From: Candidatus Levyibacteriota bacterium
GTDB taxonomy: Bacteria > Patescibacteriota > Microgenomatia > Levybacterales > UBA12049
Direction: 5' to 3'
Assembly: GCA_016432345.1 (NCBI GenBank)
Contig: CP066685.1
Span: 695,740 to 759,739, forward strand
DNA: 64,000 bases
This document shows, one piece after another, positions 3,340 through 64,000 of the stretch. The notes under the pieces are model-generated. The model saw only the letters and a program-made list of their open reading frames with translations. It searched no databases and had not been told where the DNA came from. Position 1 is the first letter of the stretch; each line of letters opens with the position of its first letter. Made by a program: the position numbers and the translations under genes.

Positions 3340-5160
3340 ATGGATATTCGTAATGTGGCCATTATCGCCCATGTTGACCATGGAAAAACAACATTGGTGG
3401 ACGCGCTGTTAAAGCAATCAAAAACAAAACTGCATAAAGACAGCGCTAGCTCGCTTATTATGGATAGCAACGAGCTTGAGCAAGAAAGGGGTATTACTAT
3501 TTTTTCCAAAAACGCCTCGGTGCTGTGGCATTCGCCAGCTGGCGAAACCAAAATAAATATTATTGACACCCCAGGACACGCAGATTTTGGCGGGGAAGTA
3601 GAAAGAGTTTTAAAAATGGCCGATGGATGCTTGCTGCTAATTGATGCCAAAGAAGGACCAATGCCCCAGACCCGTTTTGTTTTAAAAAAAGCGCTGGAGA
3701 TGAAATTAAAAATTATTGTGGTTGTTAATAAAATTGATAAAAAAGACGCCCGTATCCATTATGTGCTTAGTAAAACTCTTGATTTGTTTTTCGAATTAGG
3801 AGCCGATGAAGAAACCGCCGATTTTCCCATTATTTATGCATCGGCAAAAATGGGAAAAGCAGGACTCACAGAAGATTTAACAGCCATGACCGATATATCA
3901 CCGATATTTAACATGATTCTAGAAAAAATTCCATCCCCTGCTGGAGACAAAAATAAGCCACTTCAGATACTTATTACCACCCTTTCTACTGATCTGCATA
4001 AAGGACGCATTGCGATTGGACGAATATACAATGGCACAATTAAAAACGGCCAAGACATAGTCCAAATAAAAAGGGACCAAACAAAAAATACTTATAGAGT
4101 AACTTCTCTTATGACCTTTGTTGGGCTTGATAAAACAGAAGTAGAAAGTACAGAAAGCGGCGATCTTGTGGCTGTTTCTGGTATTGCCAATCCTGAAATT
4201 GGCGAAACAATTACTGATCCTACAGAATCAATCGCTCTGCCTGTACTTAATATCGAAGAACCAACGATTAGAGTTACTTTTATGGTAAACAGCTCTCCTT
4301 TTGCAGGACGGGAAGGGGAATTTAAAACCTCTCGCCAAGTTAGGGATAGATTATATAAAGAACTAGAAACCGACATGGCTCTTAGGGTACAAGACGATGC
4401 TTTAGGAGGTTGGGTTGTGTCGGGACGGGGAGAACTGCATATTGCAATTTTAATTGAGCGGATGCGGCGGGAAGGATACGAATTTCAAGTTGGCAGACCA
4501 CAAGTTATTGATAAAGTTATAAACGGCGAAAAACTTACTCCGTACGAACGCATATTTATAGAAATACCAGATGAATTTAGCGGTATTGTTATGCAAAAAT
4601 TAGGCGCAAGACGCGGCGAATTACAAGATATGAAGTCAGAAAACGGCACAACATATATGGAATTTATTATTTCCACCCGCGGGCTTTTTGGCTATCGAAG
4701 CGAATTTGTTACAGATACTCGGGGTTTAGGTATTATTAACACTTCATTTTACAAATACGATAAAGACAATGGTTATTCTCACGAAAGGGAAAGAGGTTCG
4801 CTTGTTGTTCACGAAAATGGCATAACCAATTTATATGGCCTTACCAATGCCCAAGATAGAGGAATACTTTTTGTTGGACCCGGCATAGATGTTTACAAAG
4901 GACAAGTTGTTGGAGAAAATGCCAGATCAGAAGATATGACAATTAATGTCTGCAAAGAAAAACAACTCTCCAACATGCGCTCCAAAGGCGAAGGCGGCAT
5001 GGAACATTTTAATACACCAAAACAAATGGGGCTTGAAGACGCGCTGGAATTTATTGCCGATGACGAACTTGTTGAAGTAACACCTAAAAATATTCGAATT
5101 AGGAAAGCCATACTTGACGAAGTTGAAGCCCGCCGCAAACGCTCCCAAGGATTGATTTAA
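3340..5160 (+). CDS. typA: Translational GTPase TypA/BipA
   Basis: 606 aa; N-terminus VAIIAHVDHGKTTLVD, DTPGHADF, NKIDK G-motifs; full TypA-length C-terminal domains. Confidence 0.9.
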   Translation: MDIRNVAIIAHVDHGKTTLVDALLKQSKTKLHKDSASSLIMDSNELEQERGITIFSKNASVLWHSPAGETKINIIDTPGHADFGGEVERVLKMADGCLLLIDAKEGPMPQTRFVLKKALEMKLKIIVVVNKIDKKDARIHYVLSKTLDLFFELGADEETADFPIIYASAKMGKAGLTEDLTAMTDISPIFNMILEKIPSPAGDKNKPLQILITTLSTDLHKGRIAIGRIYNGTIKNGQDIVQIKRDQTKNTYRVTSLMTFVGLDKTEVESTESGDLVAVSGIANPEIGETITDPTESIALPVLNIEEPTIRVTFMVNSSPFAGREGEFKTSRQVRDRLYKELETDMALRVQDDALGGWVVSGRGELHIAILIERMRREGYEFQVGRPQVIDKVINGEKLTPYERIFIEIPDEFSGIVMQKLGARRGELQDMKSENGTTYMEFIISTRGLFGYRSEFVTDTRGLGIINTSFYKYDKDNGYSHERERGSLVVHENGITNLYGLTNAQDRGILFVGPGIDVYKGQVVGENARSEDMTINVCKEKQLSNMRSKGEGGMEHFNTPKQMGLEDALEFIADDELVEVTPKNIRIRKAILDEVEARRKRSQGLI

Positions 5161-9699: not shown

Positions 9700-10281
9700 A
9701 TGGGCAAATTTTTTAGACTTGCAATTTTTTTGTGCTTAACACCCGTTGTTTTTTTATTACTCTTTGTTTCTATTTCTTACCTCTCATATCTTAAAGTTTT
9801 TCAAGATCCATACCACGTGCATCTTTCCCAAAGTCAAACTGTAGCTTACGCCGCTTTGCCATCTGCACAGGATATTATCGAACAAGAAGTAATCATGCAG
9901 GATGCCAGAGTAGAAATGATAAAACAATTCTTTGCCAAATATAAATCGCCGCTAGAACCGTACGCAAAAGAGGTTGTTAACTATGCCGATGATTTTGGTC
10001 TTGATTTTCGGCTTATTCCCTCTATCGCCATGCAAGAATCTAACCTTTGTCTTAAAGCTCCAGTTGACTCCAACAACTGCTGGGGATTTGGCATATATGG
10101 CGGCAAGGTAAGAATGTTTAAAGACTATAAAGAAGGGATTTATGAAGTTACCAAAACCCTTGCTACAAACTACAAGAAAAATGGCTTAGAAACGCCAGAA
10201 CAAATTATGACTCGCTACACCCCAGGAAGCAATGGCAGTTGGGCTAGAGGAGTAACCCACTTTATGAATCAGCTTCAGTAA
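9700..10281 (+). CDS. Secreted lysozyme-like / lytic-transglycosylase-like peptidoglycan hydrolase, paralog 1
   Basis: Signal anchor; conserved block IPSIAMQESNLC...WGFGIYGG (putative catalytic Glu-Ser context as in SLT-type muramidases); clear paralogy with the next gene. Confidence 0.5.
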   Translation: MGKFFRLAIFLCLTPVVFLLLFVSISYLSYLKVFQDPYHVHLSQSQTVAYAALPSAQDIIEQEVIMQDARVEMIKQFFAKYKSPLEPYAKEVVNYADDFGLDFRLIPSIAMQESNLCLKAPVDSNNCWGFGIYGGKVRMFKDYKEGIYEVTKTLATNYKKNGLETPEQIMTRYTPGSNGSWARGVTHFMNQLQ

Positions 10282-10380: not shown

Positions 10381-10935
10381 ATGGTAAAAAAAGGAGTGCT
10401 TCTTTTTACAGTGCTGGCAATTATCTATCAAAACTTTATTCCAAATGTCTTTGCGCAGAAATCTGCAGGATCGTCTGCTGTGTCTATTGTCACACTTCCA
10501 GAACAAGAAGAAGACGCAAGAGTAAAAATTCTTAAAAAATATCTTGAAAAATACAATTCGCCTTTGGTAAATTATGCTAGTGTCTTTGTTGCGGAAGCTG
10601 ACAAAAACAATATTGATTATAGATTGCTTGTGGCTATATCTGGTGTCGAATCCACCTTTGGACAACAAATTCCTAATAATTCCTACAATGCGTGGGGATG
10701 GGGAATTTATGGCGATAATATGATTAGATTTTCGTCTTGGAACGAAGCTATTGCAACTATATCTGGCGAACTTAGACAAAAATATATAAATCAGTGGGGA
10801 GCTAAAGATGTCTATCAGATTGGAAGGTTTTATGCTGCTTCACCAACATGGGCATCCCGTGTTAATTACTTTATGGAAAAAATAAACGCGTTTGCCCTAA
10901 AAAATCCGGGGCAGTCTCTTCCCATTTCACTCTAA
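10381..10935 (+). CDS. Secreted lysozyme-like / lytic-transglycosylase-like peptidoglycan hydrolase, paralog 2
   Basis: Signal peptide; the same architecture (KYxSPLxxYA...DxRLLxAISGVESTFG...WGWGIYGD...) aligns along its whole length with the preceding ORF. Confidence 0.5.
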   Translation: MVKKGVLLFTVLAIIYQNFIPNVFAQKSAGSSAVSIVTLPEQEEDARVKILKKYLEKYNSPLVNYASVFVAEADKNNIDYRLLVAISGVESTFGQQIPNNSYNAWGWGIYGDNMIRFSSWNEAIATISGELRQKYINQWGAKDVYQIGRFYAASPTWASRVNYFMEKINAFALKNPGQSLPISL

Positions 10936-12529: not shown

Positions 12530-13150
12530 ATGAATGAGTTACCCACCGCTGGTAATCCCGAAACCTCCCGCTTTCCAGAATTTGAGTATGGAAGAGATTT
12601 ATATGTTCAACTTTTTAAGGATGATACTCCTTTTGTTAACTTAGGTTATCTTCCTTATCAAAGAATTATAGCAGAAAGGGCACTCAGTATTTTAGAAAAT
12701 GATGGACATATTAGGCTAACACCTATGCCTTGTGCTACGTTCACAGGAGAAAAAGGAGATCTTGGTGATGCTGTATATCTCTATTTGCTCAGGCATGACG
12801 GGTACAGTCTTCACGCTGATGTGGAAGTCCCAGAAGGCGGTATTGATCAATCTTGGATTTTAAGACATACTTTTTTTGGAAGTGAAGCTAGCAGCACAGT
12901 TGTAGAAATTAATATGCTTCCGGGAGACACTAATTGTGAAGATCTAACTAGTTTAGTTAGACATTTATATGAGGAAAAAGGAGTACAAATAGGTGGTCAT
13001 CCAGAAATTCATTTAGAACCGGACGCATTGTTATCCCGAGTAAAATCAGCTTTGTCTTCCTCAACACACCAGGTGTGTGGTAGCTTGACACATAAGGAAA
13101 AATGGTACAATCGTTATGATGATTACGAAGCTTTACTGTTATGTAGATGA
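12530..13150 (+). CDS. Hypothetical protein; region is GC-richer than its surroundings
   Basis: 206-aa ORF with no motif recognised; its end overlaps the DUF3800 gene start. Confidence 0.4.
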   Translation: MNELPTAGNPETSRFPEFEYGRDLYVQLFKDDTPFVNLGYLPYQRIIAERALSILENDGHIRLTPMPCATFTGEKGDLGDAVYLYLLRHDGYSLHADVEVPEGGIDQSWILRHTFFGSEASSTVVEINMLPGDTNCEDLTSLVRHLYEEKGVQIGGHPEIHLEPDALLSRVKSALSSSTHQVCGSLTHKEKWYNRYDDYEALLLCR

Positions 13151-13696
13151 AAGCGGTCAAAATACAAAAGGAAAAGTATTTGTCGTTTCTGTGGTTGTAA
13201 CAGGTCAAAAACGGGAAGAACTTATAAAGATTTGTGAACAATTAGAACAAGTTAGTGGTAAGCGGAAGGATAAATGGGGCGAAGCTGATCATGAAGAACG
13301 AATGCGTTATCTTCATCATATTTTTGCAGATGACCGTTTTAGGGGCTGTTTACGCTACGAAGTGTTTCGTCAAACAATCGATTACGATACGGCAACTATT
13401 AAAGGTATTGTTGCATCAATAAAATGGGAAAAACCGAGTAGCAAGTATACTACGCTTATATATTGATGGACTTAGAAAAACAAAACGGCATGAATATGGA
13501 GCAAAACTTCGTCATTTGGGACTATCTGTTAGAAAAGTACAAGGAATTGCGAAAGACGAAAGTAATACTTTAACTCGTCTTGCTGATGCTATTGCTGGCT
13601 TTGTACTTGACGCAGTGGATGGCACATCGGAAGAGATAAAAGCATTATTTCGAAAAGCAAAGCGGGATAGTATGCTTATTGAAGTTTCTCCATAAA
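13116..13696 (+). pseudogene. DUF3800-family protein, interrupted by a +1 frameshift near 13440-13466
   Basis: N-terminus KLYCYVDESG (DUF3800 YxDESG signature). Frame A stops at 13466; the downstream part (IDGLRKTKRHEYG...LTRLADAIAGFVLDA...) continues in frame +1 to 13696 and matches the conserved C-terminal half of the family. Confidence 0.55.
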
Positions 13697-13809: not shown

Positions 13810-13911
13810 ATGCCAAAAAATCAACAGTTGATTTTACTCGGAAAATTCTATACAATTCTAAAGGTGAAACAATTTTGCATTCTTACTGTCGTCCTTATTG
13901 ATCTCGCATAA
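13810..13911 (+). CDS. Putative ilv leader peptide (33 aa: MPKNQQLILLGKFYTILKVKQFCILTVVLIDLA), 14 of 33 residues Ile/Leu/Val
   Basis: Short ORF whose stop lies 2 nt before the first of the alternative stem-loop segments upstream of ilvB; the C-terminal third is ILTVVLIDL. Confidence 0.55.
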   Translation: MPKNQQLILLGKFYTILKVKQFCILTVVLIDLA

Positions 13912-13942
13912 ACGAGCGGGGCTGACTGTAGAAAAACATACT

Positions 13943-13966
13943 CCCGCTCATAAGCGGGATTTTTTT
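13943..13966 (+). terminator. Attenuator terminator: CCCGCT-cata-AGCGGG plus T7, abutting the ilvB ATG
   Basis: 6-bp GC-rich stem followed by TTTTTTT. The upstream segment GAGCGGGG (13914-13921) can pair with TCCCGCTC (13942-13949) as a mutually exclusive antiterminator. Confidence 0.55.
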
Positions 13967-17033: not shown

Positions 17034-17090
17034 ATGAAGACAAATCAAAACATTCTCCTTACTATTGATCTCCTCCTTACGGAGATCTAA
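17034..17090 (+). CDS. Putative leu leader peptide (18 aa: MKTNQNILLTIDLLLTEI), 6 Leu and 3 Ile
   Basis: Short ORF ending 35 nt before the terminator hairpin; the Leu codons lie inside a self-complementary segment GATCTCC..GGAGATC. Confidence 0.6.
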   Translation: MKTNQNILLTIDLLLTEI

Positions 17091-17124
17091 TGGTTTGGGA
17101 GAAATAATTTTTAGATAATAACAA

Positions 17125-17150
17125 TCTCCCAAGCAAGGGAGATTTTTTTT
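17125..17150 (+). terminator. Attenuator terminator: TCTCCC-aagcaa-GGGAGA plus T8, abutting the leuA ATG
   Basis: Hairpin followed by TTTTTTTT. The upstream GGGAGA (17096-17101) and GGAGATC (17081-17087) can pair with ATCTCCC as alternatives; the 3' arm GGGAGA also serves as the Shine-Dalgarno for leuA. Confidence 0.6.
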
Positions 17151-23497: not shown

Positions 23498-23571
23498 GGG
23501 CGCATAGCTCAGTTGGTTAGAGCGTTACATTGACATTGTAAAGGTCTCAGGTTCGAATCCTGATGCGCCCA
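23498..23571 (+). tRNA. tRNA-Val (anticodon GAC)
   Basis: GGGCGCA-TAGCTCAGTTGGTTAGAGC...TTACA-TTGACAT-TGTAA...GGTTCGAATCC...TGCGCCC-A. Confidence 0.85.
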
Positions 23572-23659: not shown

Positions 23660-23998
23660 ATGAAAAAAGCAAAAACCAGTCCTCAAAACGAGAATCTCAC
23701 AGATATTCTTAAACTTCTTACCAAAAGAATCGAAGAAGTAGCTGTTGATGTATACGGAATAAAAGGGAGCATAGCAAGAATTGATCTTAAAGTGCATGCT
23801 ATAGACATGAATACCAAATTAACAAAATCGGACGTAGAAAGATTAAGTAAAGAAGTAAAAAAGGTTGAAAAAAGAATTATTAACGAAGTTGGAAAATTCA
23901 TTGATCAAGCTATTCTTCCACAACTCGATGATAAAGCCGATAAAAAAGATGTAGAACGATTGGAAGGAAAACTCGACAGTCTTTTACACGCAAATTAA
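23660..23998 (+). CDS. Hypothetical coiled-coil protein
   Basis: 112-aa Lys/Glu-rich ORF with heptad character and no identifiable motif. Confidence 0.35.
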   Translation: MKKAKTSPQNENLTDILKLLTKRIEEVAVDVYGIKGSIARIDLKVHAIDMNTKLTKSDVERLSKEVKKVEKRIINEVGKFIDQAILPQLDDKADKKDVERLEGKLDSLLHAN

Positions 23999-24003
23999 TT
24001 TGA

Positions 24004-24032
24004 TTGACAATAATAAATTTGTCTGCTAGTAT
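24004..24032 (+). promoter_or_regulatory. Sigma70-like promoter TTGACA-17 nt-TAGTAT, 7 nt upstream of the ilvA leader ATG
   Basis: -35 at 24004-24009, -10 at 24027-24032; leader ATG at 24040. Confidence 0.4.
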
Positions 24033-24039
24033 ACATACA

Positions 24040-24084
24040 ATGAATAAAAATCAAATTATCACAATTACCACCATTCCTTCCTAA
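24040..24084 (+). CDS. Putative ilvA leader peptide (14 aa: MNKNQIITITTIPS), 4 Ile and 4 Thr
   Basis: Short ORF whose stop codon is immediately followed by GGGAGGTG, the first arm of the alternative structures. Confidence 0.55.
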   Translation: MNKNQIITITTIPS

Positions 24085-24108
24085 GGGAGGTGTGTTTTTG
24101 TAAGAAAT

Positions 24109-24136
24109 ACCTCCCATAAAGGGAGGTTTTTTATTT
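24109..24136 (+). terminator. Attenuator terminator: ACCTCCC-ataaa-GGGAGGT plus U-run, 5 nt before the ilvA ATG
   Basis: 7-bp stem followed by TTTTTATTTT. The upstream GGGAGGTG (24085-24092) can pair with ACCTCCC as the antiterminator. Confidence 0.55.
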
Positions 24137-24141
24137 TAACC

Positions 24142-25392
24142 ATGAACAATACTGTTACAATTAAAACAATCGAAGAGGCTTCTAAACGAATCAATGGCAT
24201 AGCCAAAAATACACCACTGCAGCATGCCAAAAGACTTTCCGAACTTTTTGAAGCCACCATCTTTTTAAAACGCGAAGACCTTCAACGAGTGCGTTCTTAC
24301 AAAATTCGAGGCTCCTATAATCTGATGAAGTCGCTTTTGGACAAGGAAAAAGCAAACGGCGTTGTCTGCGCCAGCGCGGGCAACCACGCGCAAGGAGTAG
24401 CCTACAGCGCGGCAGCGCTTAAAATACATGCCGACATTTTTATGCCGGTTAAAACACCGCTGCAGAAAATAAACCGAGTCAAGCATTTCGGAGGAGCATG
24501 GATAAAAATCCACCTGGTTGGCAATACCTATGATGAAAGTTATAAAGAGGCTTTAAAGTATTGCAAAGATAAAAAAGCCACCCTTGTTCATCCCTTCGAT
24601 GATCCTCGCGTAATATCGGGAGCAGGCACCATTGCCAAAGAAATTTACGACGAGTTAGGCCAAAATATTGACTATATAATTTGTACAATTGGCGGAGGAG
24701 GATTAATTTCTGGAGTGGGAACATATCTTACTCAAAAAATAAAAAAAATAAAGGTGATAGGAACAGAACCAAAGGGAGCGCCAAGTATGTACGAGGCATT
24801 AAAAAAAAGAAAAGTTATTACACTCGATGCTATCGATACCTTTGTCGATGGGGCGGCAGTAAAAACAGTAGGCCAAAAAACATTTGATATTGCAAAAACT
24901 GTAGTAAGTGAGATTATTTTAGTTCCAGAAGGCAAAGTTTGCACTACTATGATTGATCTTTATCAAAATGAAGGGATTGTCGCAGAACCAGCAGGCGCGC
25001 TTTCGATCTCTGCTCTTGACTTTATGGCAGAAAAAATAAAAGGAAAAACTGTTGTTTGCATTTTAAGCGGCGGCAATAACGACATTTTAAGATACCCAGA
25101 AATTATGGAAAGAAGTCTTATATATCTTGGAAGAAAACACTATTTTCTTATTGAGTTTGCGCAAAAACCTGGACAGCTTAGACAGTTTGTGGATAAGGCG
25201 CTTGGTCCAACCGATGACATTGTGCGCTTTGAATACATCAAAAAAAGCGCCAAAGAAACAGGTCCGGCATTGGTTGGCATCGAGCAGGAAAAAAAAGAAG
25301 ATTACGATAAACTCATACACCAAATGAATAACTTTGGTATTATATACAAAATAATAACTTCTAATGATCTTATCTATAATTATCTTATATAA
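24142..25392 (+). CDS. ilvA: Biosynthetic threonine dehydratase (threonine ammonia-lyase) with a C-terminal regulatory domain
   Basis: PLP-lysine motif (KREDLQRVRSYKIRGSYN), glycine-rich loop (GNHAQG, GGGGLISG), ACT-like C-terminal domain; 416 aa. Confidence 0.85.
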   Translation: MNNTVTIKTIEEASKRINGIAKNTPLQHAKRLSELFEATIFLKREDLQRVRSYKIRGSYNLMKSLLDKEKANGVVCASAGNHAQGVAYSAAALKIHADIFMPVKTPLQKINRVKHFGGAWIKIHLVGNTYDESYKEALKYCKDKKATLVHPFDDPRVISGAGTIAKEIYDELGQNIDYIICTIGGGGLISGVGTYLTQKIKKIKVIGTEPKGAPSMYEALKKRKVITLDAIDTFVDGAAVKTVGQKTFDIAKTVVSEIILVPEGKVCTTMIDLYQNEGIVAEPAGALSISALDFMAEKIKGKTVVCILSGGNNDILRYPEIMERSLIYLGRKHYFLIEFAQKPGQLRQFVDKALGPTDDIVRFEYIKKSAKETGPALVGIEQEKKEDYDKLIHQMNNFGIIYKIITSNDLIYNYLI

Positions 25393-25432
25393 AAGCTTTG
25401 CATAGCGGTATTTTTTTGCTATAGTAATAACC

Positions 25433-26671
25433 ATGAAGGATACAAAAAATCTAAAAGATCACAAGCAAATTGGCCAAGAGCTTGAATTATTTTTTACTCA
25501 TGACATAGCTCCTGGCGCTCCATTTTGGCTTCCTCGCGGCCTGATTATCTTTAAACAACTTGAAAAATATATTAGAGAACTAACAGAAAATGCCGGATAT
25601 TTAGAAACATCAACCCCCATAATGGTAAAATCTGAGCTGTTTAAGCAATCTGGACACTGGGAAAAATTTGGCGCGCATAATATGTATAATTTACAACTTT
25701 CAGATGAAAATGATGATTCTAAACCAGTTAGTTATTCCCTAAAACCAATGAACTGTCCCGAATCAACCATAATTTATAGATTTAGACCCAGATCGTATAG
25801 AGAATTACCCTTAAGACTGTCCGAAATTGGCAGGCTTCATAGAAGAGAAAAATCAGGGGAAGTAAACGGACTGCTTCGAGTTAGACAGTTAACTATGGAC
25901 GATGCGCATATTTATGCTACTGAAGAGCAAATTTTTGATGAGGTTTCTAATATTTTGGACATGATGATACATTTTTACGAAAGTTTTGGTTTTGAGTATG
26001 AATTCCGATTTGCCACCAGACCAGAATCCAGAGCAGGAAATGATAAAATGTGGGACAAAGCGGAAAACGCGCTATATCAAGCTTTAAAAAAGAAAAAAAT
26101 TAAAGCAGGGGACAAAATGGGAGACGGAGCATTTTATGGACCAAAAATAGACTTGCACATTAAAGATTCCCAAAAAAGAGAATGGCAACTTGCAACAGTT
26201 CAACTGGACTTCCACCAACCAGAAGCGTTTAATTTAAAATATATAGATGAAAATGGCGAGTCGCAAAGACCTGTTATGATTCACAGGGCAATCTTTGGTT
26301 CATTTGAAAGATTTATTGGTATTCTAACAGAACACTATCAAGGTAAATTTCCGCTGTGGCTTTCTCCTGTGCAAATAATACTTGTTCCAATTGCTGATCG
26401 ACACAAAGAGAAGGCAGAAAAAATCTTCAAAAAGTTACAAAATGAAGGTATTAGAGTAGAAATTGATGATCGAAAAGAGACGATGCAATCTAAAATTAGA
26501 GATGCCACTTTACAAAAAGTGCCATATATGGGTATAATAGGAGATAAAGAAACCGAAAAATCGGGCGAGTTTCTTTTGTCTGTAAGAACACGAGAGGGAA
26601 AAGATCTAGGACAATTAGCTTTCCCAATGTTTTTACAAAGGGTAAAAGAAGAAATTGATACGAAGGTTTAA
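25433..26671 (+). CDS. thrS: Threonine--tRNA ligase, catalytic core plus anticodon-binding domain only (no TGS or N2 editing domains)
   Basis: Starts directly at the DHKQIGQELELFF motif (canonical DHRKLGxELDLF, which normally lies about 240 aa into ThrRS); class II motifs and the C-terminal anticodon-binding domain are present. Sits in the conserved thrS-infC-rpmI-rplT order. Confidence 0.8.
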   Translation: MKDTKNLKDHKQIGQELELFFTHDIAPGAPFWLPRGLIIFKQLEKYIRELTENAGYLETSTPIMVKSELFKQSGHWEKFGAHNMYNLQLSDENDDSKPVSYSLKPMNCPESTIIYRFRPRSYRELPLRLSEIGRLHRREKSGEVNGLLRVRQLTMDDAHIYATEEQIFDEVSNILDMMIHFYESFGFEYEFRFATRPESRAGNDKMWDKAENALYQALKKKKIKAGDKMGDGAFYGPKIDLHIKDSQKREWQLATVQLDFHQPEAFNLKYIDENGESQRPVMIHRAIFGSFERFIGILTEHYQGKFPLWLSPVQIILVPIADRHKEKAEKIFKKLQNEGIRVEIDDRKETMQSKIRDATLQKVPYMGIIGDKETEKSGEFLLSVRTREGKDLGQLAFPMFLQRVKEEIDTKV

Positions 26672-27759: not shown

Positions 27760-27813
27760 ATGAAACAATTCAACAATAGAAAAATTACTTTTTGGTTTTA
27801 TTTTACCTCCTAA
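27760..27813 (+). CDS. Putative aromatic leader peptide (17 aa: MKQFNNRKITFWFYFTS), with Phe-Trp-Phe-Tyr-Phe in 6 consecutive codons
   Basis: Short ORF directly followed by AGCGGGGA and a strong terminator before the DAHP synthase gene. Confidence 0.6.
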   Translation: MKQFNNRKITFWFYFTS

Positions 27814-27843
27814 AGCGGGGACTATTTGCGTGTTGCAAATAAG

Positions 27844-27866
27844 ATCCCCCAAAGGGGGATTTTTTG
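27844..27866 (+). terminator. Attenuator terminator: ATCCCCC-aaa-GGGGGAT plus TTTTT, 5 nt before the DAHP synthase ATG
   Basis: 7-bp stem (5 consecutive G-C pairs), 3-nt loop, U-run. The upstream GCGGGGA (27815-27821) can pair with TCCCCC as the antiterminator. Confidence 0.6.
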
Positions 27867-27871
27867 TATTT

Positions 27872-39613: not shown

Positions 39614-39653
39614 CTTTTCCACCTTAGAGGTGGAATGCTATTGACACCTTGGG
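39614..39653 (+). repeat. Left REP-like hairpin of the Y1-transposase unit (TTCCACC-TTAGA-GGTGGAA plus downstream CTATTGACACCTT)
   Basis: Perfect 7-bp stem hairpin; its exact reverse complement occurs at 40378-40396. Confidence 0.7.
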
Positions 39654-40353
39654 TATTTTCGTTTACTCTAGCAATATGCCGGGAAGAAAAACGCCACTGG
39701 TAAATAACGAAATATACCACATCTTTAATAGAGGTGTCGCATCGCAACCAACATTTCTCAATAAAAGAGACTATGACAGAGCTTTAGAAACAATTTTCTA
39801 CTATCAAAATAGCATTCCTCCAATAAAATACTCTCGTTTCCTATCTTTATCTACAGAAGATAGAACTGAGTTATTCGAAAATTTAGCAAAACAGAAAAAT
39901 TTTCTAGTAGAAATCATTTCGTACTGCCTTATGCCTAATCACTTTCATTTTCTGTTGAGACAAATAAAAGATGGTGGTATTGCAAAGTTTATAAGTAACT
40001 TTACAAATAGTTATACCCGCTTTTTCAATACAAAACGAGAAAGAACAGGGCCGCTTTTTACAGGAAAGTTTAAATCTGTAAGGATTGAAACACAAGAACA
40101 ACTTCTCCACGTTTCAAGATATATCCATTTGAATCCATATACTTCTTTTGTTGCAAAAACACTTAAAGACCTTGAAACTTATCCCTATTCTTCTTTTCCA
40201 GAATTCATTAACAAAGTAAAATCAAATTTTTGTACTAAGGACATTGTTTTAGCTAACTACAAAAATATAGAATCTTATAAACAATTCGTTTTTGACCAAG
40301 CAGACTACCAACGATCATTAGGTCTAATAAAACATCTAACCACAGAGAATTAG
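39649..40353 (+). mobile_element. HUH-Y1 transposase of the IS200 / REP-associated tyrosine transposase (RAYT) type
   Basis: YHIFNRG N-terminal motif, HUH motif MPNHFHFLL, catalytic-Tyr helix VSRYIHLNPY (YIxxNP signature); flanked by inverted REP-like hairpins. Confidence 0.7.
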
Positions 40354-56161: not shown

Positions 56162-57289
56162 TTATGCAATAAAATTTAGGTAGTTTTTAGGCGTAACTGC
56201 CGCAAAAGCCGCTTGGGGATATGAAGTTATCCAATCCTTTGGCGCAACCACTTTTTTCTTGTTAGACCACTTGCATTCATACCCAAATAACTTACCGTCG
56301 CGGTCCTCCACCAAATCTATCTCCTGCTGACTATATGTGCGCCAAAAATACTGGTTGCTATAAATTCCTTTATATGAACGTTTTTTAAGCCTCTCAACCA
56401 CTACAAAATTCTCCCACAATTTTCCACCATCATCCCTCATATCAAGGCCGTTAAATTGCGCTATTATTCCATTACGTATCCCGTTGTCCAGAAAAAAATA
56501 TTTATTTTTACTAGTAATTTCAGAACGCAGATTTCTGCTTAATCCTCCTAATGATAGGATTACAAAAGATTTCTCCAACAAATCAAGATATCTGGCAACT
56601 GTTTTAATATCAATGCCAAGTTTCATTGATAACTCATTTAAAGATACTTCGCTGCCCAATTGAAATGCCAATAATTTTAACAAATCCAGTAATACTTTTG
56701 ATCCTTTGATTTTTTCTAATGACAGTACATCCTTTAACAAATAAGAATTAACTATTTCTTCAATAATACTTACTTTTTCTTGCTTGGTTTTAGCGGTTAA
56801 TACTTCTGGATAAACGCCAAAAATTAAAAATTCATTTAATCTTTCTCTAAGCTCGTGCTTATTATAAATCTCTGAAAGCTCAAGTTGAGAAATAGGAAAT
56901 AACGTAACAGTATTTTTTCTACCGGTTAAAGGTTCGCCAATCTGGTGGGAAAGGTCAAAAGACGATGATCCTGTGGCAATCACCTTAATATTTGGTATTT
57001 GATCTATAATAATCTTTAAACCCATGCCTATATTAGGAATTTGTTGCGCTTCATCAATTGCGATCAATTCATACCCTTGGGCATACTCCAAAATTTGGGA
57101 AAAATCCTGCGATCCTAAAATTTGTTGAGTACGGATATTATCTCCTATATCCAGCTTATATTTTAATTGAGTGCTGTTTAAATAATCCTGCAGCATAGTA
57201 GTTTTGCCTACACGTCTTGGCCCATAAATTACCAGCACTTTTTGTGGTTTTAACAGCTTTCCAATATCATATATTCTAGGTATAAGCAT
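56162..57289 (-). CDS. AAA+ superfamily ATPase (COG1373 / AAA_14 plus DUF4143-like)
   Basis: Walker A IYGPRRVGKTT, Walker B LIAIDEAQ; 375 aa; a paralog lies divergently downstream. Confidence 0.7.
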   Translation of the reverse strand: MLIPRIYDIGKLLKPQKVLVIYGPRRVGKTTMLQDYLNSTQLKYKLDIGDNIRTQQILGSQDFSQILEYAQGYELIAIDEAQQIPNIGMGLKIIIDQIPNIKVIATGSSSFDLSHQIGEPLTGRKNTVTLFPISQLELSEIYNKHELRERLNEFLIFGVYPEVLTAKTKQEKVSIIEEIVNSYLLKDVLSLEKIKGSKVLLDLLKLLAFQLGSEVSLNELSMKLGIDIKTVARYLDLLEKSFVILSLGGLSRNLRSEITSKNKYFFLDNGIRNGIIAQFNGLDMRDDGGKLWENFVVVERLKKRSYKGIYSNQYFWRTYSQQEIDLVEDRDGKLFGYECKWSNKKKVVAPKDWITSYPQAAFAAVTPKNYLNFIA

Positions 57290-57462: not shown

Positions 57463-58746
57463 ATGAATTACTACCCAAGAAAACTGCTAAGTAAAATAGA
57501 ACCCTTTTATAAACTTAGGGAGATTATCGCCATAGTTGGCGCGAGACAAGTGGGTAAAACTACCCTTCTAAAAATTATTTTTGATCATTTATCAAAAAAA
57601 CATAAATGTTTATTTTTAACTTTTGAAAATCGTTCTGATTTAGAAATATTTGACACAGATATTGAAAACTTTAAAAAACTGTATTGTTTGGATTACGAAA
57701 TAATTTTTATAGATGAGTTTCAATATGCTAAAGATGCCGGGCAAAAACTAAAATATCTGTATGATACTACCAAAGTGAAGTTTTTTATTAGTGGTTCTGC
57801 TTCGCTGCAGATAAAAGAAGCAGGTAAATACCTGGTAGGCAGAGTGTTTACTTTTGATTTACATTCATTTTCTTTTGAGGAATACTTGGAAGTAACAAAT
57901 CCTGCTTTGTATCATATTGTCAAAAAAGGCTTTAACATAGTAAAAAATCTTTTAGCAGGAAACGAACCTAAAATCACAAATTTCATAAAAAGCGAAGCCC
58001 TAAATGCTAAATTAACAAATCTTTTCGAACAGTATTTGATATTTGGAGGTTATCCTAGAGTAGTAACTTCTAAAACAGACGACGAAAGAAAACAAGTTCT
58101 TGCCAGCATCATAGATAATTATTTATTGCGGGATATTAGTTCTTTACTGCATTTGGCAACGGAAAATCAGTTGTTAAATTTAAGCCGATTTTTAAGTCTG
58201 CAAACAGGTAATTTAATCTCTTACACAGAGTTATCTACAACTATCGGCATGCCTTACAAAGAAGTTAAAAACCACATCAAAATACTTGAGCAGACTTTTG
58301 TTGTTAATTTGGTTTATCCATATTTTGGCAATAGAAGAACAGAACTAGTTAAAAACCCTAAAGTATACTTTTTGGACAACGGTTTTAGAAATAAAGTGAT
58401 TGACAATTTTTCTTCTTTGTCAGACAGGTCGGATATGGGGGCATTAGCAGAAAATTTTATATTCAATAGTCTAATTAGAGGCAACATAATAGATTCAAAC
58501 AAGGTAAATTTTTGGAGAACAAAATCACAGGCCGAGGTTGATTTTATAGTTTTTAGAGAAGGGGAAATTATCCCTGTGGAAGTAAAATACGCTCCCATCA
58601 ATCAAAAAGTTGCGGGGAAAAGTCTGTTTAGTTTTATCAATAAATACTCTCCCAAAACAGCAGTTATTACTACCAACAAAGAATTTGGGGCGCGTCAAAT
58701 TAAAAACACAAATCTATACTTTATTCCTATTTTCTTTTTAGACTAG
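57463..58746 (+). CDS. AAA+ superfamily ATPase (COG1373 / AAA_14 plus DUF4143-like), paralog
   Basis: Walker A IVGARQVGKTT, Walker B IIFIDEFQ; 427 aa. Confidence 0.7.
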   Translation: MNYYPRKLLSKIEPFYKLREIIAIVGARQVGKTTLLKIIFDHLSKKHKCLFLTFENRSDLEIFDTDIENFKKLYCLDYEIIFIDEFQYAKDAGQKLKYLYDTTKVKFFISGSASLQIKEAGKYLVGRVFTFDLHSFSFEEYLEVTNPALYHIVKKGFNIVKNLLAGNEPKITNFIKSEALNAKLTNLFEQYLIFGGYPRVVTSKTDDERKQVLASIIDNYLLRDISSLLHLATENQLLNLSRFLSLQTGNLISYTELSTTIGMPYKEVKNHIKILEQTFVVNLVYPYFGNRRTELVKNPKVYFLDNGFRNKVIDNFSSLSDRSDMGALAENFIFNSLIRGNIIDSNKVNFWRTKSQAEVDFIVFREGEIIPVEVKYAPINQKVAGKSLFSFINKYSPKTAVITTNKEFGARQIKNTNLYFIPIFFLD

Positions 58747-60573: not shown

Positions 60574-63500
60574 CTACGGAGCAACCTCCTGCCAAATATA
60601 GTTGGGGGATTTAAGAAAATCAGGAGCATTTAAAATAAAGTCTAATCGCTCGAAAACTTTAAACGATGGCGTGGTTTTGTTATTACTGCAAAGGTTTCTG
60701 TGATTTATTATCTGTCCTCCTTGCAATTTAGCATTAGTTACCAAAGCGCCGGCAATACTAAGCTGGGTATCTGGTGTTGGAGGGCTGGCTTGACAGCCGG
60801 CAATATCGTTTCCCTCCAATACAATGTCTGAATCACTGCTGTAAAATCCTTCCAATTTGGTAACTGCTTTATCAACTGTAATTTTCCCAGATACCGAAAA
60901 GGTAACAGTCGAACCAACCGGTACAATAATATTCTCGCTGATATTAAGGTTGCCATTTACCAGTATGACATAATTTTTACCATTCGGGAAAGTATATCCG
61001 GTACCAGACAATGTTAAATCGCCTTCTGATTTATACAAACCATTTGTTAATTGACTAATATCCGATGGAAAAGGATTTGGGACAATCCCGTTTTGCCTGG
61101 CGGTGGTGGTCATATAATCGTAGGAGGTTCTAATTGCTCCGCTCACAGGCGTAAATGTTTCTTTCCACAATCCCGAACCAGCTTGCCAATCGTAGTCTTT
61201 CGATGCCCGGCCGCCTGCTACCCCAAAATTTGGGGTGGATCCGCCGGAAAAGATTACTCCAGGTGTTTGGCCGCCGCCGCCATCACCTCTGCCAGGCAAA
61301 GACGCGTATGGCTCCATACCCGTTCTACCCTGGGGAATTGAGTCCACAAACCCGCTATCCATGCGCATATCCCCGCCCACTCCCTGAAACCAGGACGAAG
61401 TACGAACATTTACAGTAACTCTAATAGATTGTGGAATACAATTACGTTGGGCTATCAGCGGATCGCTAGATACCCCTGCATCCTCATTTACTGTTAGCGT
61501 AGCTGTTCCCTCACTAATAGCATTAACTGTAATAATTGCTCCTTGAGGAACTCCCCTAGAAATTCCAATTATTTGACTCTCGGGATCACTAGTATACCAG
61601 CCTATTAAACCTGGATTTCCATTATAGCCAGTGGCGGTTAAGGTGAGCGTTTGTCCAGGCTCCATGGTTATATTTAATCCCGGTGATACCCGCAGGATGC
61701 TGCACCAATACGAAACATCGGTACTGCAGTAGTTGCTAAAAAGACCATTGCTGTTTTTGGCATAGGATTTTGGGTGAAACTGACCCGCAGAATCATATCT
61801 GTGCGTAGCGGTCGAGCCGCCTGGAGTAAGAAAAAGCGAGGTTATAGGATCATCGAAATTGTAGAAATAACTGCTGATTGCCTGCGGCGGGGCGGGGCTG
61901 GTATCAATGCTGGCCGAGTATTGACTTGTTATTATGTTTGAATATCCACTCAAAAACAAAGGTCTAACAAAGGCAAAAAGGTAGCTTCCGGCCGGGGTAA
62001 TTAGATAATCCCGTTCTCCGCCTATCATATGGCTTACGCCCGGTATCCTTTTTAAAGGCAGCCACGGGCCTAAAGTGCCGTCGCTGCTATTAACAGCCGA
62101 AACAAAATCAACGCTAGTCTGTAAGCCGTTTTCTGTAAAACGCAGTCCTGTTACAAAAGCGTAGCCGTTAGACGCAAAAGCATTTGAAAAGTGACCATTT
62201 GGCGGGGCCGTAAGCCGCGCCCAGGAATCTAACGACCCGCCCCCAGATCTTATCCGCGCTCCAAAAACATTTGTTGTTGTCCCATTGAAATCAATTAAAT
62301 AAAGATAATCGTTGGCTACAAACAGATCCTTTATTCCATAAGGAGAGTCCACCTGGGGCATAGGTAATTCTTCCCAGTTAAGACTGTCTGTTGAGCGCAA
62401 AATTTTTGCTGTTACCGCGCCTGCTTCGCTTCTTGTTCCCGAAACAATTAATTTATTACCATAACTAGTCATCGAATAAGGCGTAAACCCCGCAGGGAAA
62501 TTTGGGTCACGGGAAAGCCAAGAACCAAGACTGCCATCGCTACTATTAACTTGAACATTGTAAAACTTATACACATTAGCGCCATAATGATTGTAATTGG
62601 CAATTACATAGATATTATTGCCTCTGTTTGCAACAAGCTGACCAGGATTTAAAGTATAAGAAGGATCAGCGCTGGTGCCGGGATTAGGCAGCGACCATTC
62701 CGGTTTGCTAACCCACGGGCCTAAAGTGCCGTCTGTTTGATATTGCGCTCTAAGCACATTAGCAAGAGAAGCTGTGCCATAAGCCCCCCCAACCATAAAA
62801 AGATAATTATTCACCATTACAGGTTTTGAGTACCAAATAGGAGGATAAGACTGATAAGTGTTTTCAAAAGACTGCAGTGTGCCGTTGGCGTTGATTTTGG
62901 CGGCAAGACTGGCATTAAGCGAGGTTGTTACAACAACAATATACCCGTTTGCTAAAACCGCAGATTGCGGCCATGCGCCAATAAAAGTTGGCGTTTCGGA
63001 CATCTGCCATCCTTCTTCTCTAAGAGTGCCATTATTTTGGTTTATAGGAGCAAATTGCGTAAATCCACCGCTGGTAACATACAAATAATTACCCGATACC
63101 GCAGAATTACTCATTACACCAGGATAAGATAAATCAGTAAGGGTCTGCCATGCGTTTATAGTACCATCGCTATTTACATAAGCTGATTTTACTGTTTTTA
63201 TCCATCCGCTATTATCATTGCCCCCTGCTATAAAAATGTAATCGTTGGCGGCCGCGGCTGAATGATAATACAATGGGATTGAAAGTTTTGTAGTTTCTGT
63301 CCAATCGCCTAAAGAAACGCTGTCTCCGTTGATAGTTATTTTGGCGGAGTAAGTTGTATCTTTGGAGAAACTTCCATACAAACCTCCTGTTACAAACAAA
63401 TATCCTTTAATTGCGACAGTAGCATGAGTATATCGAGGCTGCGGCAGGGACGTAAGGGTTGTCCACTGGTCTAAAGTGCCGTCATCGTTAACCTTGGCGG

Positions 63501-64000
63501 CATAGACGGCGGATTGCGTTGTACCATCGTTTGCCATACCACCGACTACAAAAAGAAAACCATTATACACAGTGGCAGTATGATTATGAAGCTGTTTGGG
63601 CAAAGAAGAAACAGTGCTCCACTGGCCTAAAGTGCCGTCATCGTTAACCTTGGCGGCATAGACGGCGGAAGAATAATATCCTCCTGTAATATAAACATAA
63701 CCATTAACCGCGGCTGTGGCGTATCCAACCATCTCTTGTGATGTAAGAGGAACTGCCATAGGATTCCACTTCGCAACAACATTGCTGGGATTAGCGGCAA
63801 TGGTGTTAAAGACAACGTCAAGCGGCCGCTCGCCCCTATCTGGCTGCGCAGTTAGGCTTTGACAAAAAGGCCTATCCGCCTCGCCCGCAAAACCAAAAGA
63901 AACACTTTGGCTATAAACAGAACAACTTCTATCTTCACAGTTATAAAGGCCGGAGTTAACATTGGAAAATTCCGGCGCGCCGCCTGGTCCAATCGTGTCG
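60574..64000 (-). CDS. Giant secreted beta-propeller (Kelch/galactose-oxidase-like repeat) protein, likely pilus-associated adhesin; N-terminus lies beyond the window edge
   Basis: Repeated roughly 45-aa units (YITGGYYSSAVYAAKVNDDGTLGQWSTVSSLP / FVVGGMANDGTTQSAVYAAKVNDDGTLDQWTTLTSLP ...). The minus-strand reading frame stays open from 63759 up to coordinate 64000 with no stop. Confidence 0.6.
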   Translation of the reverse strand, partial: DTIGPGGAPEFSNVNSGLYNCEDRSCSVYSQSVSFGFAGEADRPFCQSLTAQPDRGERPLDVVFNTIAANPSNVVAKWNPMAVPLTSQEMVGYATAAVNGYVYITGGYYSSAVYAAKVNDDGTLGQWSTVSSLPKQLHNHTATVYNGFLFVVGGMANDGTTQSAVYAAKVNDDGTLDQWTTLTSLPQPRYTHATVAIKGYLFVTGGLYGSFSKDTTYSAKITINGDSVSLGDWTETTKLSIPLYYHSAAAANDYIFIAGGNDNSGWIKTVKSAYVNSDGTINAWQTLTDLSYPGVMSNSAVSGNYLYVTSGGFTQFAPINQNNGTLREEGWQMSETPTFIGAWPQSAVLANGYIVVVTTSLNASLAAKINANGTLQSFENTYQSYPPIWYSKPVMVNNYLFMVGGAYGTASLANVLRAQYQTDGTLGPWVSKPEWSLPNPGTSADPSYTLNPGQLVANRGNNIYVIANYNHYGANVYKFYNVQVNSSDGSLGSWLSRDPNFPAGFTPYSMTSYGNKLIVSGTRSEAGAVTAKILRSTDSLNWEELPMPQVDSPYGIKDLFVANDYLYLIDFNGTTTNVFGARIRSGGGSLDSWARLTAPPNGHFSNAFASNGYAFVTGLRFTENGLQTSVDFVSAVNSSDGTLGPWLPLKRIPGVSHMIGGERDYLITPAGSYLFAFVRPLFLSGYSNIITSQYSASIDTSPAPPQAISSYFYNFDDPITSLFLTPGGSTATHRYDSAGQFHPKSYAKNSNGLFSNYCSTDVSYWCSILRVSPGLNITMEPGQTLTLTATGYNGNPGLIGWYTSDPESQIIGISRGVPQGAIITVNAISEGTATLTVNEDAGVSSDPLIAQRNCIPQSIRVTVNVRTSSWFQGVGGDMRMDSGFVDSIPQGRTGMEPYASLPGRGDGGGGQTPGVIFSGGSTPNFGVAGGRASKDYDWQAGSGLWKETFTPVSGAIRTSYDYMTTTARQNGIVPNPFPSDISQLTNGLYKSEGDLTLSGTGYTFPNGKNYVILVNGNLNISENIIVPVGSTVTFSVSGKITVDKAVTKLEGFYSSDSDIVLEGNDIAGCQASPPTPDTQLSIAGALVTNAKLQGGQIINHRNLCSNNKTTPSFKVFERLDFILNAPDFLKSPNYIWQEVAP

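Follow-up and report, generated by a model that had tools for sequence, protein, structure and literature searches.

What controls ilvA in a Candidatus Levyibacteriota bacterium, and why is a small open reading frame (ORF) rich in Ile and Thr codons placed between its promoter and its start codon? We addressed this question in a 64,000-nt stretch of contig CP066685.1 (the window), for which a preliminary description, made from the letters alone, had proposed an attenuator upstream of ilvA. The existence and good conservation of that attenuator are strongly supported by our analysis, which adds four points: a further hairpin between the first two leader segments, isoleucine as the conserved signal, a probably leaderless start, and a family of related elements. 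Our preferred reading, which combines folding models with comparison of relatives, is that ilvA is preceded by a ribosome-mediated (leader-peptide) transcription attenuator that would respond to charged tRNA-Ile, and we put its probability at roughly 85%.

Anatomy of the ilvA leader

An independent pattern scan of the window scored the ilvA promoter at 10 of 12 hexamer matches, with the TG extension present, and seven nucleotides separate its -10 hexamer from the leader ATG at 24040 (Table 1). The leader ORF reads ATG AAT AAA AAT CAA ATT ATC ACA ATT ACC ACC ATT CCT TCC TAA. Seven of its 14 residues are Ile (four) or Thr (three), all in the one unbroken run IITITTI, and it has no Leu and no Val codons. 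Of all ATG-started ORFs of 10-25 codons in the window (560, both strands counted), no other has a run in which seven of seven residues are Ile or Thr. The leader is about 98 nt long and ends in a predicted intrinsic terminator (24109-24137), detected by both the pattern scan and folding, that consists of a 7-bp stem with five G-C pairs, a 5-nt loop and UUUUUAUUUU. The product of the downstream gene matches the IlvA profiles NF006390 of NCBIfam (621.6 bits, cut-off 421) and TIGR02079 (602.6 bits); an exact-sequence look-up of the window IlvA matched no record.

The preliminary description had located a promoter-like TTGACA-17-TAGTAT 7 nt before a 14-codon ORF, the ACCTCCC and GGGAGGT segments, GGGAGGTG, TTTTTATTTT and the ilvA ATG. 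Every one of these coordinates proved correct when we read the sequence, the pattern scan recovered the same promoter, and the profile scores bear out the naming of ilvA. Its count of eight Ile or Thr residues was one too high. The 7-nt gap was also given correctly, but what it implies for leaderless translation, discussed below, had been overlooked.

Table 1. Features of the ilvA leader and of the three related elements in the window
Feature	Coordinates	Strand	Remarks
-35 hexamer TTGACA	24004-24009	+	sequence reading and pattern scan
TG-extended -10 (TGcTAGTAT)	24024-24032	+	TG 24024-24025, TAGTAT 24027-24032; 17-nt spacer from -35
Leader ORF MNKNQIITITTIPS + TAA	24040-24084	+	14 codons; without upstream Shine-Dalgarno (SD) sequence; stop 24082-24084
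Regulatory codons IITITTI (ATT ATC ACA ATT ACC ACC ATT)	24055-24075	+	antiterminator predicted on stalling with the A site on codons 5-11
Region 1, 3' part of leader ORF	24061-24081	+	pairs with region 2 in minimum free energy (MFE) folds
Region 2	24083-24101	+	core GGGAGGUGU at 24085-24093; partner is region 1 or region 3
GGGAGGTG	24085-24092	+	immediately after leader stop codon; sequence reading
U-rich tract	24094-24099	+	3' of the 1:2 hairpin
Region 3 (AUACCUCCC)	24107-24115	+	ACCTCCC 24109-24115; 3' arm of antiterminator and 5' arm of terminator
Region 4 (GGGAGGU) and U tract UUUUUAUUUU	24121-24137	+	GGGAGGT 24121-24127, TTTTTATTTT 24128-24137
ilvA, regulated gene	24142-25392	+	threonine ammonia-lyase, 416 aa; NF006390, TIGR02079
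ilvB attenuator	13864-13966		GTG start, peptide VKQFCILTVVLIDLA; terminator 13942-13959
leuA attenuator	17034-17150		peptide MKTNQNILLTIDLLLTEI; terminator 17123-17144
DAHP synthase/aro attenuator (DAHP, 3-deoxy-D-arabino-heptulosonate 7-phosphate)	27760-27871		peptide MKQFNNRKITFWFYFTS; terminator 27841-27863

Alternative folds and the position of the ribosome

The leader RNA folds at -30 kcal/mol, as compared with -18.7 ± 3.1 kcal/mol for shuffled sequences (z = -3.6), and none of 200 shuffles was as stable. The MFE fold contains the terminator and a hairpin between regions 1 and 2 (24061-24101), with the leader stop codon within or beside its loop. This previously hidden 1:2 hairpin makes the ilvA leader a full four-segment attenuator. 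It is followed by UGUGUUUUUG, and CCTTCC-TAA-GGGAGG with TGTGTTTTTG was picked up as terminator-like by the pattern scan. On the model of the trp and his leaders, the hairpin may serve as a pause site that lets the ribosome catch up with the polymerase. Folded singly, the three helices are of comparable strength, at -10.8 kcal/mol for the 1:2 core, -14.0 kcal/mol for 2:3 (24085-24115) and -11.9 kcal/mol for 3:4.

To represent translation, we folded transcripts ending before region 4 with the positions covered by a ribosome barred from pairing. With the A site on any of codons 5-11 (Q I I T I T T), regions 2 and 3 are predicted to pair (GGGAGGUGU with AUACCUCCC) at -15.5 kcal/mol, and with the A site on codon 12 the 2:3 pairing is partial, at -8.4 kcal/mol. 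A ribosome with its A site on the stop codon covers region 2 and leaves region 3 unpaired (0.0 kcal/mol). When no ribosome is present, the 1:2 hairpin forms and region 3 is again free (-15.5 kcal/mol). With the footprint that we assumed, terminator and antiterminator are thus mutually exclusive in constrained folding, the choice between them being made by the position of the ribosome.

These results sustain the core of the structure proposed in the preliminary description, namely a 7-bp ACCTCCC/GGGAGGT hairpin, an alternative pairing of ACCTCCC with the segment that follows the stop codon, and the mutual exclusivity of the two; both helices are predicted at the energies given above. The predicted terminator and antiterminator stand as described, but the 1:2 hairpin had been missed.

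Conservation and covariation among relatives

A scan with the IlvA protein, with one genome taken per GTDB species, yielded 24 loci (25 including that of the window, WIN). In eight of the 24, ilvA heads a transcription unit, and each of these eight repeats the layout of the window, with a promoter, then an Ile-rich small ORF and then a terminator. Listed with the identity of their IlvA to that of the window, their leader peptides are MNKNQIIAITITLL (L001, 91%), MNKKLIIAITTTLL (L002, 90%), VKKFSSIQIISIISIMES (L004, 72%), MHRSLQIIDIIIPS (L006, 63%), MKIQKITIIDFITS (L007, 62%), MAKGIISIIGIIITSFGGALA (L010, 62%), MLQSQIIIAMISLPLTGAALS (L014, 57%) and MTIKNISIKIITS (L023, 58%). The ORFs keep their position and have 13-21 codons. 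In the closest relatives the length of 14 codons is identical, and between the window and L001 the Ile codons swap synonymously (ATT/ATC). Conservation is seen in the reading frame and in the Ile codons, which vary synonymously, and not in the nucleotide sequence.

The leader is restricted to loci in which ilvA heads a transcription unit. No leader was found where ilvA is internal to an operon, as in L003 (after leuB), in loci of the L008-L017 range (after ilvC, ilvB or leuA) and in L019, L021 and L024 (after ridA). Two loci, L017 (near 2126) and L018 (near 780), have small Ile-containing ORFs with terminators just upstream of ilvB, and these are probably ilvB attenuators. L006 has an extra 18-codon ORF (MALKDRDWLEKTQALLME; about 3925-3995) between the attenuator terminator and ilvA, which overlaps the ilvA start as ATGA and suggests translational coupling.

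Constrained folding gave the same outcome for all eight relatives: the antiterminator is predicted when the ribosome stalls at the Ile codons, and region 3 is left free when it reaches the stop codon. Five of the eight are predicted to form the 1:2 hairpin when no ribosome is present, region 3 being already paired in L007, L014 and L023. A terminator is present in all nine loci. Region 3 varies among them (ACCUCCC, AACCCCGC, AAAUCUCCC, GACCUCCCA, AACCUCCU, AAGCCCCGG or CUCCC), and the helix cores vary by locus between CCUCCC, UCUCCC, CCCCGC and GCCCCGG. The partners in regions 2 and 4 change to match region 3, and region 1 changes to match region 2 where the 1:2 hairpin is predicted. We tabulated this covariation from the constrained folds of the individual sequences because MAFFT did not bring the stems of the nine leaders into register. 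A matrix of cognate and non-cognate RNAduplex energies was uninformative, as region 2 lies inside the ORF in L010 and L014 and the CCUCCC core is common to many loci.

A metagenome scan with the IlvA alignment added 80 loci, most of them distant (61% identity or less). The sole plausible leader among them is that of a high-G+C relative, L026, which has MVTVTRAGASIIGIT and a terminator; the apparent leader of L050 looks like a false positive, and the remaining loci are distant ilvA genes without leaders. The closest of the 24 loci come mostly from metagenome-assembled genomes (MAGs) labelled Candidatus Levyibacteriota, from several collections (L002, L003, L004, L007, L017 and L023). Other labels among L001-L024 are Patescibacteria, Saccharibacteria and Parcubacteria, and the "binchicken" or co-assembly MAGs are labelled "uncultured Gammaproteobacteria". 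The labels conflict even between near relatives, L001 being called "uncultured Gammaproteobacteria" and L002 "Candidatus Levyibacteriota".

Isoleucine, threonine and the neighbouring thrS

Over the nine leaders Ile accounts for 43 of 143 residues (30%), with three to seven per leader and an adjacent II pair in every one, as compared with 9.8% in the window proteins. Thr occurs zero to three times per leader, and in several leaders the lone Thr belongs to the ACC UCC that forms region 1. Runs of two or three consecutive or nearly consecutive Thr codons occur only in WIN, L001 and L002. As read from this set of leaders, Ile is the conserved signal of the ilvA leaders and Thr is not. The expectation of a conserved Ile/Thr-rich small ORF before ilvA thus held for the frame and for Ile in the eight relatives, but not for Thr. 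The comparison of Ile plus Thr with classical ilv attenuators was also imprecise: the ilvGMEDA leader of Escherichia coli has Ile, Leu and Val codons, and it is the thr operon leader that has Ile and Thr.

One explanation for the Thr codons would refine the tRNA-Ile attenuator and is compatible with it. The leader could be a dual Ile and Thr sensor for a read-through unit ilvA-thrS-infC-rpmI-rplT, in which the Thr codons would raise threonyl-tRNA synthetase, and ilvA alongside it, at low levels of Thr-tRNA. The order thrS-infC-rpmI-rplT follows ilvA directly in WIN, L001 and L002 and in no other locus, and these are the loci with Thr runs. The pattern scan predicted no terminator between ilvA and thrS, and in the constrained folds the antiterminator is also predicted for a ribosome held up at Thr codon 8, 10 or 11. 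For Streptomyces lividans, a Thr leader peptide has been suggested upstream of thrS (PMC8079986). Against this, the association of Thr runs with thrS amounts to a single observation, since WIN, L001 and L002 belong to one clade (at least 90% IlvA identity). The thrS gene also has a conserved promoter to itself, the TG-extended -10 lying 6-7 nt from the ATG, so read-through from ilvA is not needed, and the Thr codons may be merely tolerated. We consider such a dual sensor possible but rather unlikely.

The window thrS (25433-26671) encodes a protein of 412 aa with the class II core and the anticodon-binding domain, and without the N-terminal TGS or editing domains. It heads thrS-infC-rpmI-rplT, and its TG-extended -10 (within 25397-25432) lies 7 nt before the ATG. 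The short form is shared by L001 and L002, and L023 encodes the full-length enzyme. A separate Thr leader for thrS in L023 was considered and ruled out, as thrS there is full length and the sequence upstream is coding.

Probable leaderless translation of the leader peptide

Each of the nine loci has a TANNNT hexamer whose end lies 6-7 nt before the leader start codon; it is TG-extended in six, and TTGACA or TTGACT with a 17-nt spacer is present in seven. We infer that transcription starts at the leader start codon or 1 nt before it. A -10 only 6-7 nt from the start codon leaves no room for a ribosome-binding site, and the leader peptide is therefore probably translated from a leaderless mRNA. 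The ilvB (GTG 13864) and leuA (ATG 17034) leaders have the same 7-nt spacing from the -10; in the aro leader this distance is 10 nt.

The same arrangement is common elsewhere in the window. Hardly any of the 59 window ORFs examined has an SD-like motif upstream. A -10-like hexamer lies 5-8 nt before the start in 14 of the 59, and many first genes of operons have one. Such starts include thrS and those at 1363(-), 1436, 2369, 6712, 35608, 42816 and 57289(-). Given the near absence of SD motifs and the closeness of -10 hexamers to starts, leaderless or SD-independent initiation looks like the normal mode of this organism.

There are precedents for leaderless leader peptides. According to the summary of Morbach 2000 in PMC11857589, transcription of Corynebacterium glutamicum ilvBNC begins 1 nt from the leader start codon, and a lacZ fusion and mutants of the start codon and Val codons showed that the leader is translated. 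Mapping of transcription start sites has indicated eight leaderless leader peptides in S. lividans (PMC8079986) and fourteen in Deinococcus deserti (PMC4007540).

Proposed mechanism and alternatives

The anatomy, the exclusive folds, the conservation with covariation and the promoter geometry are computed observations, and the following mechanism is built on them. RNA polymerase would start at A24040 or 1 nt earlier, the mRNA would open with the AUG of the leader ORF, and a 70S ribosome would most likely load on this 5'-terminal AUG without an SD sequence, with the 1:2 hairpin perhaps pausing the polymerase. If Ile-tRNA is plentiful, the ribosome would reach the UAA at 24082 and cover region 2 (24085-24093); region 3 would then be free to pair with region 4, and the 7-bp hairpin and U tract would stop transcription about 5 nt before ilvA. 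If Ile-tRNA is scarce, the ribosome would stall in codons 6-12 and mask region 1, the 2:3 pairing would precede the synthesis of region 4, and the polymerase would continue into ilvA. From the position of the codons, scarcity of Thr-tRNA would be expected to have an equal effect. If no ribosome loads, the 1:2 pairing and the terminator would form a default off state.

Several points weigh against this mechanism. The ribosome footprint in our folds is a fixed approximation, with its 3' edge 11 nt past the A-site codon, and the covariation table comes from folds of single sequences and not from an independent alignment. Because WIN, L001 and L002 are one clade, the nine loci represent about seven independent lineages. 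The transcription start is a prediction from promoter geometry. Thr codons before ilvA are metabolically odd, since a shortage of Thr would induce a Thr-consuming enzyme. Appearance alone may also mislead: the ilvB leader of Streptomyces coelicolor looks similar, and mutations of its regulatory codons are reported to have been without effect (PMC1262725).

The simplest alternative is that the hairpin merely terminates, or insulates against, the upstream gene for a 112-aa protein, and that the small ORF is a chance product of AT-rich sequence. No other terminator is predicted for that gene, which ends at 23998, and Ile codons are common at 38% G+C, where Ile makes up 9.8% of residues. A strong promoter nevertheless stands between this gene and the hairpin, and the ORF, the promoter spacing and the alternative helices are kept despite different upstream genes (leuB in L004; unrelated genes in L006, L007, L010, L014 and L023). 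To gauge chance, we defined a composite of a small ORF with at least three Ile in seven codons and a terminator-like hairpin within 70 nt. It occurred 56 times in 505 kb (the window and the related loci, both strands), a background of 0.037 per 330 nt, and 9 of the 25 ilvA loci have it immediately before the gene. We regard this explanation as the least probable of those considered. Hardly more probable is translational control, in which region 4 (GGGAGG) would be the SD sequence of ilvA, hidden in the terminator hairpin. GGGAGG-like 3' arms do lie 7-9 nt before the ATG at the window leuA and at the ilvA of L023 and L006. In the window, though, GGGAGG ends 15 nt before the ilvA ATG, and this spacing, with the near absence of SD sequences from the window genes, led us to reject the idea; L001 and L002 moreover have GCGGGG at the position of region 4, and a canonical U tract follows the hairpin.

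An attenuator of another kind, dependent on a ligand or a protein (a small riboswitch, a T-box-like element or an RNA-binding protein) and with an untranslated ORF, would share the terminator and antiterminator, since such pairs are common to all these mechanisms, and the ilv-leu operon of Firmicutes is regulated by a T-box. The Rfam scan of the whole window at gathering level found only tRNAs. In a permissive scan of 23950-24200 all matches were below the gathering score, the best being to a leader-peptide family, Phe_leader (RF01859, 27.4 bits against 55), followed by His_leader (RF00514, 19.7 against 49) and Thr_leader (RF00506, 13.2 against 55); the T-box (RF00230) gave no match there up to an E-value of 10. 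The leader of about 98 nt has no conserved unpaired sequence for a ligand or tRNA, and conservation lies in the frame and the Ile codons and not in the nucleotides. A ligand- or protein-dependent element is thus very unlikely, if slightly less so than translational control, and we retain the leader-peptide attenuator.

Genomic context and significance

The genes of the window run in the order ilvB, ilvC, leuA, ilvD, ridA, leuC, leuD, leuB, a tRNA gene, the 112-aa ORF and ilvA, followed by thrS, infC, rpmI, rplT, an aro operon, an aminotransferase gene and pheST. The aro operon extends from DAHP synthase to chorismate synthase and then a prephenate dehydrogenase/dehydratase fusion. Leader peptides precede four of these units (ilvB, leuA, ilvA and DAHP synthase/aro), with a shared architecture and with compositions that match the amino acids of the pathways (Table 1). 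Four pathway-matched peptides in one window are hard to explain without a function.

We tentatively suggest, at somewhat less than even odds, that an organism of the Patescibacteria, or Candidate Phyla Radiation (CPR), here a member of Levyibacteriota, runs ilvB, leuA, ilvA and aro on attenuators with leaderless leader peptides, and that the Thr codons of the ilvA leader tie it to thrS-infC-rplT. If true, it would be the first description of amino-acid sensing by RNA in the Patescibacteria/CPR radiation, and it would mean that 70S loading on a 5'-terminal AUG can serve to synchronise attenuation where initiation is independent of SD sequences. A full-text literature search found no paper joining leader peptide, attenuation and Patescibacteria, and searches on amino-acid biosynthesis in Levybacteria gave nothing useful. 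The ilvA element itself is a clean, conserved and very compact example from an uncultured, poorly known lineage. Together with its three sister elements, it suggests that a small-genome organism synthesises branched-chain and aromatic amino acids for itself and regulates their synthesis. Complete-looking pathways of this kind would be unusual for Patescibacteria. Rfam does not cover the small leader ORFs, and new families could be built from them.

Other features of the window are noted here. The 112-aa ORF (23660-23998) before the attenuator has no Pfam or NCBIfam match and is kept in L001 and L002 (48-74% identity); a tRNA gene (23498-23571) precedes it. No Pfam or NCBIfam match was found either for the ORFs at 9700-10281, 10381-10935 and 12530-13466. 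Nine of the ten tRNA genes of the window lie within its first 11 kb. An IS200-like Y1 transposase (39649-40353), two divergent AAA_14/DUF4143 ATPases (56162-57289 on the minus strand and 57463-58746) and a 1061-aa Kelch-repeat protein (60574-63759, minus strand) are encoded further downstream. The window also encodes PilM (type IV pilus), a short trigger factor and a DUF5660 protein, which do not contradict a placement in Patescibacteria and do not prove it. In view of the conflicting labels of the relatives, we regard the assignment to the CPR as probable. Levyibacteriota lie within the Microgenomates group of Patescibacteria.

Comparison with known attenuators

Leader-peptide attenuation is textbook knowledge in Proteobacteria and is known as well from Actinobacteria, some Firmicutes and Deinococcus. 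With no Rfam match at threshold, the ilvA element would work like a classical attenuator while standing outside any curated family. It shares with the enterobacterial attenuators (trp, his, thr, ilvGMEDA, leu and pheA) the logic of 1:2, 2:3 and 3:4 helices, the regulatory codons in a short ORF, the stop codon beside region 2 and the terminator just before the structural gene. The Ile and Thr composition of the window leader resembles that of thrL. In contrast to the enterobacterial leaders of 140-200 nt, that of ilvA is about 98 nt, its ORF has no SD sequence, and ilvA is controlled as a separate unit. Unlike ilvL of ilvGMEDA, most of the relatives have Ile only, without Leu or Val.

In 2010, Proteobacteria and Actinobacteria, to which Firmicutes had just been added, were viewed as the only groups with leader-peptide systems (PMC2965389). 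The ilv-leu attenuators of Staphylococcus aureus and Listeria, as outlined in PMC5794164 and PMC5864092, resemble the ilvA element in exerting leader-peptide control of branched-chain genes outside Proteobacteria. The title and abstract for S. aureus describe a leucine-rich attenuator peptide that acts alongside CodY.

Further parallels are the leaderless peptides of C. glutamicum (IlvL of ilvBNC), S. lividans (ilvL, leuL, trpL and thrL) and D. deserti, which are likewise followed by hairpins and a U tract and precede branched-chain or aromatic amino-acid genes (PMC11857589, PMC8079986, PMC4007540). They differ in that the target here is ilvA rather than ilvB, the genome is low in G+C and has MAGs labelled Levyibacteriota or Patescibacteria as its nearest relatives, and the transcription start is placed from promoter geometry. 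No sequence homology between these elements and ours is evident, and the likeness was judged without a homology test. The ilvA element suggests that attenuation operates with leaderless translation outside Actinobacteria and Deinococcus.

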